In this document: piece after piece, positions 10,880 through 11,446 of the stretch
How the letters are laid out: each line of letters starts with the position of its first letter
Numbering within the stretch: the stretch's first letter is position 1
The notes under the pieces: model-generated
The model's database searches: none
What the model saw: the letters and a program-made list of their open reading frames with translations, nothing else
Told to the model about the DNA's origin: nothing
Program-made: the position numbers and the translations under genes
NCBI RefSeq assembly: GCF_003790525.1
Contig: NZ_CP033635.1
Length of the DNA stretch: 64,000 nucleotides
Strand: one strand, 5' to 3'
Source of the DNA: Escherichia coli
Lineage (GTDB): Bacteria; Pseudomonadota; Gammaproteobacteria; Enterobacterales; Enterobacteriaceae

Positions 10880-11446
10880 GCAATCAATGCCCGGTTGCGT
10901 GCGCGTACACCGGGCAGTTTCTCCGTCATACAATCATTCTTTTTCTTGTCTAAATGTTGTTAATATTTAACAACTCTCGATAGTTATTATATTTTCCCAT
11001 TATTGAATCCCGTAATAAAATAAAGAAGATAATGGTTTTGTGTCTTGAATATATATTTATTGATTTAATTAATATTAAATTTTAGCAATAAATGATGGTA
11101 AGGTCATTATAATTTTTTTTAGTGTGCTTTATAAGCAATTCATTTTTGTTGATTATAATAGTTTGTTTTTTTGTTGATAATTCGCATGTTTTTTTGTTGG
11201 AAAGTGGTGAAAGTATTTTGTAGATGTATTAATTAATAAAATCTACATAAAGTGTTTAAGTATTACTAAATTGAGTTTTTTTATAGATAAGACCAACATA
11301 CAGACACACCAGAGAATACTTGTTTACATTCTATGATTATATTGGAGTGTATATGTTCAATGGCTAACTATAAATATCGGGCATAATATATATTAATTTT
11401 ATGTCAGGTGTTTATATTATAACTCTTAATGATTTAAGGACAAATA

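Follow-up and report, generated by a model that had tools for sequence, protein, structure and literature searches.

The AT-rich spacer ahead of the yfc fimbrial operon in B2-type Escherichia coli: probably a silenced control region, with a weak candidate promoter and a predicted leader hairpin

The fimbrial gene yfcV is widely used as a marker of uropathogenic and B2 Escherichia coli. Structured 5' leaders can set the fate of an mRNA, as in the stabilising hairpins of the ompA 5' UTR and the leader stems that are cleaved by RNase III. The yfc operon was presented as a core-associated, cryptic but functional fimbrial operon in the work of Korea et al. (2010), as cited in PMC3559732. In K-12, the spacer between sixA and yfcV was listed by Panyukov and Ozoline (2013; PMC3661553, Table 1) among 78 "promoter islands" associated with H-NS; such islands are AT-rich, have dense promoter-like sites, and bind RNA polymerase and H-NS with little full-length RNA being made (PMC3661553). 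Genomic SELEX placed an RpoD promoter, TTGAAA-17-TATAGT, and an H-NS site in this K-12 spacer (Shimada et al. 2014, PMC3946193), and a SELEX peak of the RpoS holoenzyme was also found there (PMC5493296). Literature data further have K-12 yfcV going up after Rho inhibition and after BolA overproduction. In CFT073, overproduction of TosR raised yfcV by a log2FC of 5.2, about 37-fold (PMC5956150). TosR belongs to the PapB family, binds DNA that is rich in A and T, and presumably works against H-NS and Lrp (PMC5956150); its effect on yfcV could be indirect.

The DNA analysed here, referred to as the window, is a 64,000-nucleotide stretch of an E. coli chromosome, in which fadI, fadJ and sixA are followed by the yfc operon. 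Two genes on the same strand enclose the spacer:

10394 to 10879, plus strand: sixA, phosphohistidine phosphatase (list of open reading frames; CFT073 and K-12 annotation).
11447 to 12013, plus strand: yfcV, fimbrial subunit and first gene of the operon (Pfam Fimbrial, E = 1.6e-13; annotation).

The spacer between them is 567 bp long (10880-11446). It is 100% identical to that of strain 165 and 99.1% identical to those of CFT073 and Nissle 1917, and is therefore a B2-lineage allele. An intact usher gene (12088-14742) lies 3' of yfcV, followed by a chaperone, three minor subunits and a YfcO/DUF2544 adhesin ending at 17851; this last gene was assigned by Pfam DUF2544 (YfcO), with concordant CFT073 and K-12 annotations. 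Between yfcV and the usher gene, at 12020-12050 of the window, there is a canonical intrinsic terminator, AACCCCACAGC-GTTCT-GCTGTGGGGTT followed by TTTTC. A terminator after the major subunit gene is the usual arrangement, allowing more of the major subunit to be made than of the downstream products. At the far end of the operon, a Septu-type anti-phage defence pair has been inserted between yfcO and smrB (17893-19894, minus strand). It consists of a 452-aa AAA_21/AAA_15 ATPase with a match to PtuA (E = 1.8e-168) and a 219-aa protein with a match to PtuB (E = 5e-95). The two-gene insertion is missing from CFT073 and K-12, and just 183 of 5426 E. coli genomes have it at full length.

The spacer is, in our judgement, probably the cis-regulatory region of the yfc operon in its B2 allele: silenced, with a weak promoter and a hairpin at the RNA level, and not a switch. 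The present analysis contributes composition and repeats, the lack of switch features, the structure of the alleles and their conservation and covariation, and the literature on the orthologues contributes the binding of H-NS and RNA polymerase and the response to TosR; what we infer is the start site, the binding of H-NS to the B2 allele and the function of the hairpin called B below.

The spacer opens with an element that seems to belong to sixA:

10888 to 10916, plus strand: sixA terminator-like hairpin, GCCCGGT...ACCGGGC and then a weak T run (MFE -18.8 kcal/mol, z = -2.45).

The first 40 bp past sixA (10880-10919), in which this hairpin lies, are not AT-rich at all; they are G+C-rich. A simple terminator scan overlooked the hairpin. 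Its stem varies by allele with complementarity kept (GCCCGGT/ACCGGGC, GCCCGAT/ATCGGGC, GCCCAAT/ATTGGGC), and the structure is therefore conserved at the sixA stop, where other similarity breaks.

From there on the composition is extreme. The 527 bp from 10920 to 11446 have a G+C of 0.235, compared with 0.263 for 10880-11446 and 0.508 for the window, and nowhere else in the window is a stretch of that size lower; just 0.04% of the 527-bp windows get as low, and every one of them overlaps the spacer. An earlier note on this DNA had described a strongly AT-rich stretch of about 530 bp 5' of the yfc operon, and both the composition and, through Pfam and annotation, the operon are as it described. 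Two milder low-G+C stretches occur elsewhere in the window, at about 2600-4500 (minimum 0.31 over 527 bp) and about 61400-62200 (minimum 0.34 over 527 bp), of which the first is expected near the fadL-yfcZ region by synteny with CFT073. The long T runs that were claimed for the AT-rich region are present as well, four of them of 7-8 nt: a T8 at 11113-11120 and T7 runs at 11166-11172, 11189-11195 and 11276-11282. The longest open reading frame found inside the spacer is 33 aa, in keeping with the claim that the region has none, and a hidden regulator gene or pseudogene was rejected on the same ground. Some of the T runs form part of a phased repeat:

11143, 11168 and 11191 (span 11143 to 11201), plus strand: three phased copies of TTTTTGTTG(A/G), two of them being a perfect repeat of 13 nt (period 23 bp).

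Perfect copies of TGTTTTTTTGTTG lie at 11164-11176 and 11187-11199, at a period of 23 bp, and the third, shorter copy, TTTTTGTTGAT, is at 11143. Since a perfect direct repeat of at least 13 nt within 60 bp was seen in 0.2% of 500 dinucleotide-preserving shuffles, the repeat is not due to chance. The earlier note had reported tttttttgttg twice; the repeat is real, with the correction that the second copy begins at 11189 and not at 11197. Other alleles keep only the T runs of the phased repeat, not its GTTG part.

The greater part of this AT-rich DNA resembles the promoter islands of K-12, and two features can be placed in it:

10920 to 11270, no strand: distal AT-rich block, a presumed platform for H-NS nucleation and spreading ("promoter island"), G+C about 0.21-0.27, with promoter-like hexamer pairs on both strands.
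11052 to 11080, plus strand: putative TosR (PapB-family) AT-rich motif, TATATTTATTGATTTAATTAATATTAAAT, listed for c2884/yfcV in the supplementary table of PMC5956150 (p = 3.46e-08).

Eight promoter-like sites were counted in the spacer, mostly on the minus strand, versus 3.8 +/- 1.8 in shuffles. The spacer thus has the properties by which promoter islands are recognised, namely AT richness over 300 bp or more and promoter-like sites at an abnormal density, as judged here from composition and a count of such sites rather than by PlatProm, the original criterion. The putative TosR motif overlaps an imperfect palindrome (inverted repeat 11055-11093) and the distal promoter-like sites. The exact high-affinity motif of H-NS, TCGATAAATT, is missing from the spacer, where a single TCGATA at 10977 was found, and for that reason we make no motif-based claim for H-NS. 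By analogy with K-12, the distal 350 bp or so of the B2 allele probably act as an H-NS silencing platform; carrying the K-12 data over is an inference because the two spacers are only about 60% identical. The proposal that the spacer is the regulatory region of a chaperone-usher operon is supported. Its composition also fits that of an H-NS-silenced chaperone-usher promoter, given the G+C of 0.235, the binding of H-NS to the K-12 orthologue (PMC3661553, PMC3946193) and the response to TosR in CFT073 (PMC5956150).

It is worth looking at how this region varies in the species. Among 5426 complete genomes, the spacer falls into at least three deep allele families: the B2 type, in 1226-1248 genomes; the K-12/A/B1 type, in 3529 genomes including a partially matching O157 subtype; and a third type, represented by strain 746, in 635 genomes. 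Together the three account for about 5412 of the 5426. In megablast, similarity to non-B2 E. coli stops at the sixA stop codon (10872-10875 of the window, positions 273-276 of a 1151-bp query), and the B2 and K-12 spacers share about 60% identity. The entire yfc operon (10880-17851) is likewise diverged, being 51-83% identical to that of K-12, and fadIJ-sixA are 94-99% identical. The break at the sixA stop and the divergence of the whole operon together indicate that the AT-rich region belongs to a divergent yfc cassette, always at this locus, and the operon looks like an ancient allelic cassette or replacement at a fixed site. A few genomes carry lesions here. Strain AVS0575 has an IS1 in the spacer (3105-3872 of the AVS0575 locus) and has lost yfcV and the 5' end of the usher gene, strain XJW9B277 has its K-12-type spacer interrupted by IS1A, and strain CE10 has a 49-bp deletion, corresponding to 11199-11247 of the window, between short AAAGTG direct repeats, by which part of the T-run region is gone.

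The alleles were compared using 13-16 sequences from about 9 diverged families, among them Escherichia whittamii, two further Escherichia species and Pseudocitrobacter vendiensis. Conservation in these 13-16 alleles is concentrated in the final 180 bp or so of the spacer, and is complete at its end:

11433 to 11449, plus strand: invariant ribosome-binding region, TTTAAGGACAAATAATG, with the Shine-Dalgarno sequence AAGGA at 11436-11440 and the ATG at 11447; identical in all 16 aligned alleles, Pseudocitrobacter included.

When a collection of genomes was scanned with this invariant string, it was met at 8 loci only. Among the eight are two chance matches, in Spiroplasma and Acidobacteriota, and a 'Collinsella' contig that is probably mis-binned. 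The last is a 2.2-kb contig of a 'Collinsella sp.' MAG with a 746-type E. coli yfcV leader, probably a binning error. Pseudocitrobacter vendiensis carries the invariant yfcV ribosome-binding region together with the hairpin (14518-14699 of the Pseudocitrobacter locus).

Upstream of the ribosome-binding region, the allele comparison singles out one promoter candidate:

11271 to 11299, plus strand: candidate sigma70-like promoter, -35 TTGAGT (11271-11276), 17-bp spacer with a T7 run, -10 CAACAT (11294-11299).

The position of this site is kept in all 13 alleles, from about 9 diverged families, with TTG and CA..AT invariant. The 17-bp spacing is found in 12 of the 13; in MS10711 it is 16 bp because the length of the T run (11276-11282) differs. 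The proposed -10 matches the consensus at 3 of 6 positions, and other promoter-like sites in the spacer score higher. The RpoD promoter that SELEX gave for K-12, TTGAAA-17-TATAGT, was also considered for the B2 allele and rejected, as it is not conserved; the aligned B2 sequence is TTGTGT...TTGATT. From this candidate, transcription would start near 11306 and yfcV would have a leader of about 140 nt. The earlier note had called the whole AT-rich stretch a leader. That label is partly suitable, since it is probably the final 140 nt or so, and no more, that are transcribed with yfcV.

The predicted leader contains two conserved pairings:

11309 to 11363, plus strand: helix A, conserved islands CCAGAGAATA (11309-11318) and TGTTCAATGG (11354-11363), which can pair in RNA or form an inverted repeat in DNA.
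11369 to 11416, plus strand: hairpin B, a 19-pair AU-rich stem-loop, TATAAATATC-G-GGCATAA...TTATGTC-A-GGTGTTTATA, from folding and allele comparison.

Helix A has 8 pairs and is nearly invariant, with 99.2% of cells paired in 16 sequences; because its islands hardly change, it offers no test of covariation. No other local structure in the AT-rich part is as strong as hairpin B, which is also unique in the window. At 20% G+C it has an MFE of -14.7 kcal/mol (z = -4.94), and 0 of 200 shuffles were equally stable. Each allele family folds one long hairpin at this position, with z values by allele type of -4.9, -4.5, -3.9, -3.7, -2.5 and -2.1, and weak ones in E69 (-1.3) and 746 (-0.5). The sense strand is far more stable than the antisense (-14.7 versus -2.3 kcal/mol), since several of the pairs are G·U, and it is the more stable strand in 13 of 13 alleles. 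In the outer stem five consecutive positions vary, and at four of them, among 10 pairs in all, both sides have changed; one such compensatory change, from A-U to G-C, arose inside B2, and strain 2022H048 shows the G·U intermediate. When helix A is counted together with hairpin B's outer stem, 94.4% of cells pair, versus 88.4 +/- 1.0 in shuffles and 28-45% when the partners are slid. The covariation score is 0.244 versus 0.135 +/- 0.016, with 0 of 500 shuffles reaching it, a figure that comes from few independent lineages and from a shuffle control that ignores phylogeny; recombination between lineages may have spread the stem changes. From allele to allele, the spacing of the two arms varies by some 15 nt. 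These elements have been retained through about 40% divergence, across Escherichia and into Pseudocitrobacter.

Stability on the sense strand, compensatory changes and a variable distance between the arms favour an RNA structure over a protein operator. The first of these, together with the conserved promoter-like site upstream, also speaks indirectly for transcription of the region on that strand. Hairpin B appears to be a conserved RNA hairpin and is apparently undescribed, as the searchable literature yielded no description of it; it would act at the RNA level, on mRNA stability, processing or the modulation of read-through. A known RNA family was considered for the leader and dropped, the Rfam covariance-model search of the spacer having returned only IS009 at noise level (E = 0.2, 17.8 bits versus a gathering threshold of 117). 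Tentatively, the last 140 nt or so might go further, as a conserved structured leader RNA (helix A and hairpin B) and an undescribed element of yfc control after initiation, on top of H-NS silencing. A leader of this kind could, for instance, determine mRNA stability or cleavage by RNase III, serve as a gate that responds to a protein or an sRNA, or give rise to a small RNA of its own. Two smaller candidates in the same region were not retained. A mini-hairpin that would sequester the Shine-Dalgarno sequence, CTTAA/TTAAG (11425-11439), is part of the MFE structure of the B2 allele and was dropped because it is not conserved in K-12-type alleles. An IHF site, AATCAATGTATTG, lies inside the K-12/O157 hairpin and, in a comparison by eye, is missing from the B2 allele, and so is not a conserved feature.

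The palindromic arms, TATAAAnA...TGTTTATA and CCAGAGAATA...TGTTCAATGG, could also be read in DNA, as operators for a dimeric or looping factor or as overlapping -10 elements rather than RNA helices. They are nearly invariant and resemble promoter or operator sequence; the arms of hairpin B contain TATAAA and TATATT, possible -10 elements, and in K-12/O157 a CTGAAT-17-TATATT uses the 3' arm as its -10. Helix A, moreover, shows no covariation. We nevertheless consider this unlikely, since a variation of about 15 nt in arm distance is awkward for a fixed protein footprint, the variable inner positions stay paired through compensatory and G·U changes, and the much higher stability of the sense strand, seen in all 13 alleles, is what one expects of RNA and not of DNA symmetry.

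If hairpin B does act in RNA, it might be an attenuator or terminator in the leader, at which transcripts from the upstream promoters mostly end, perhaps giving a leader RNA of about 115 nt, with regulated read-through. Such an arrangement would suit a cryptic operon, and a long hairpin is indeed followed by U-rich sequence, especially in K-12/O157 (UUUUAAUUAUUUAU), and the 5' flank is A-rich and pairs with the U-rich part. The base of the stem, however, is AU-rich, and the U tract is interrupted, the tail in the B2 allele being UUAUAACUCUUAAU. The terminator scan found no canonical intrinsic terminator in the spacer, nothing at hairpin B included, although a canonical one does exist after yfcV, and a hand estimate of the classical score for a hairpin plus U tail is clearly negative. 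Termination at hairpin B is improbable.

The earlier note had also raised the possibility of a hidden phase-variation element. The homopolymer runs would be one substrate for it, if slipped-strand changes in poly-T length altered the promoter spacing or an UP-like element and so toggled expression. The T7 run at 11276-11282 does fall between the -35 and -10 of the candidate promoter, and run lengths vary between strains (T8/T7/T6 at 11113-11120; T7/T6 at 11166-11172 and at 11276-11282). Runs of 6-8 nt are, however, short for high-frequency slippage, other allele families have no T run in the promoter spacer, and some of the differences could be homopolymer errors in the assemblies. All 12 of the genomes listed in the 95.4%-identity class share a spacer length of 558 bp, which points to stable inheritance. 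Switching by slippage is thus very unlikely.

An invertible promoter of the fimS type would have 200-400 bp between inverted repeats flipped by a tyrosine recombinase, turning yfc ON or OFF. An AT-rich spacer before a fimbrial operon is the familiar setting for such a switch, and short perfect inverted matches can be found, AATATATATT at 11048/11385 and AATTAATAT/ATATTAATT at 11067/11390. These matches consist of A and T only, stand at chance level and are not conserved in other alleles. With a 7-nt seed search followed by a dinucleotide shuffle test, the longest perfect long-range inverted repeat in the spacer was 10 nt, again of A and T only, a length reached in 40% of shuffles, and the number of inverted 9-mer pairs was unremarkable (p = 0.14); the earlier note, which could not identify flanking repeats of the fim-switch type, was right on this point. 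The spacer has no fimS-type repeat, TTGGGGCCA, and no recombinase or papI/papB-like gene adjoins it, the neighbours being sixA and yfcV and, past the operon, the Septu pair and smrB. Orientation was judged in assemblies rather than reads, with the 1151-bp query that runs from inside sixA to inside yfcV. An internal inversion would break such matches, and 1225 genomes match collinearly through both flanks, over 80% or more of the query, the full-length matches listed each being a single BLAST piece, which speaks against inversion. A single orientation across strains, which the earlier note had associated with a plain silenced promoter, is therefore what the assemblies show, and inversion is hardly credible. 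A Pap-like epigenetic switch, in which Lrp competes with Dam at two GATC sites with helpers of the PapI/PapB type, follows a logic used by many E. coli fimbrial operons and would accommodate the effect of the PapB-family protein TosR on yfcV, but it is refuted in its Dam-dependent form by the absence of any GATC in the 567-bp spacer (10880-11446), which has no papI/papB-like open reading frame either (longest 33 aa), and is next to untenable. In all probability the spacer is no phase switch, be it by inversion, Dam methylation or repeat slippage, and with inverted repeats at chance level, no GATC, no adjacent recombinase and 1225 collinear genomes, there is no sequence basis for the phase-variation element that had been suggested.

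With these alternatives weighed, the silenced control region can be put together as follows. Past the sixA terminator hairpin, about 350 bp of 21-27% G+C would be coated by H-NS. This AT-rich block would bind RNA polymerase unproductively at its many promoter-like sites and so keep yfc cryptic, and TosR or other PapB-family binders of AT-rich DNA could relieve the silencing. Productive transcription would most likely come from the weak sigma70-type promoter (-35 at 11271-11276, -10 at 11294-11299), giving a leader of about 140 nt with the two conserved pairings, of which hairpin B, kept by compensatory changes, would act in the RNA.

Taken as a whole, the feature is real but largely ordinary, probably the silenced control region of a cryptic fimbrial operon that had already been outlined for K-12. 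Our additions are modest: a promoter candidate fixed in position across alleles and a covarying leader hairpin. The analysis matters in that the marker allele brings its own deeply diverged control region, so that K-12 data are not simply transferable to it. Concrete targets are now given: the presumed silencer block with its putative TosR motif, a single conserved candidate for the promoter, and a single hairpin that covaries in the leader. A functional hairpin B would mean that this cryptic operon is controlled post-transcriptionally as well; a hairpin without function would leave the region an ordinary silenced promoter.

Compared with the known systems, the spacer shares with the fimS switch of type 1 fimbriae a promoter-bearing, AT-rich position before the major-subunit gene, and differs from it in having no significant inverted repeats and no neighbouring recombinase, with one orientation in 1225 genomes. 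With the pap regulatory region (Lrp, Dam, PapI, PapB and H-NS) it has in common the response of yfcV to the PapB-family TosR and a plausible antagonism of H-NS (PMC5956150); unlike pap, it lacks GATC sites and papI/papB genes. The predicted yfcV leader has no similarity in sequence to leaders of the ompA type, nor a match in Rfam. The predicted leader of about 140 nt is nevertheless similar to structured 5' leaders, such as the ompA 5' UTR and RNase III stems, in placing two stems before a single-stranded ribosome-binding site, and hairpin B, with about 19-21 pairs, is roughly of the length of an RNase III substrate. In the AT richness of its upstream DNA, yfc is like H-NS-silenced cryptic chaperone-usher operons (Korea et al. 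2010, cited through PMC3559732), but here it is the spacer alone that is AT-rich, not the operon body (G+C 0.45-0.64). A last comparison is with the K-12 promoter island itself. The B2 spacer is about 60% identical to it and 113 bp shorter (567 versus 680 bp), the SELEX promoter TTGAAA-17-TATAGT is not conserved in B2, and binding of H-NS and RNA polymerase has been measured for K-12 only. The two nonetheless share locus and gene order, both are extremely AT-rich with promoter-like sites in excess, and conservation between them covers the proximal motifs, hairpin and ribosome-binding region.
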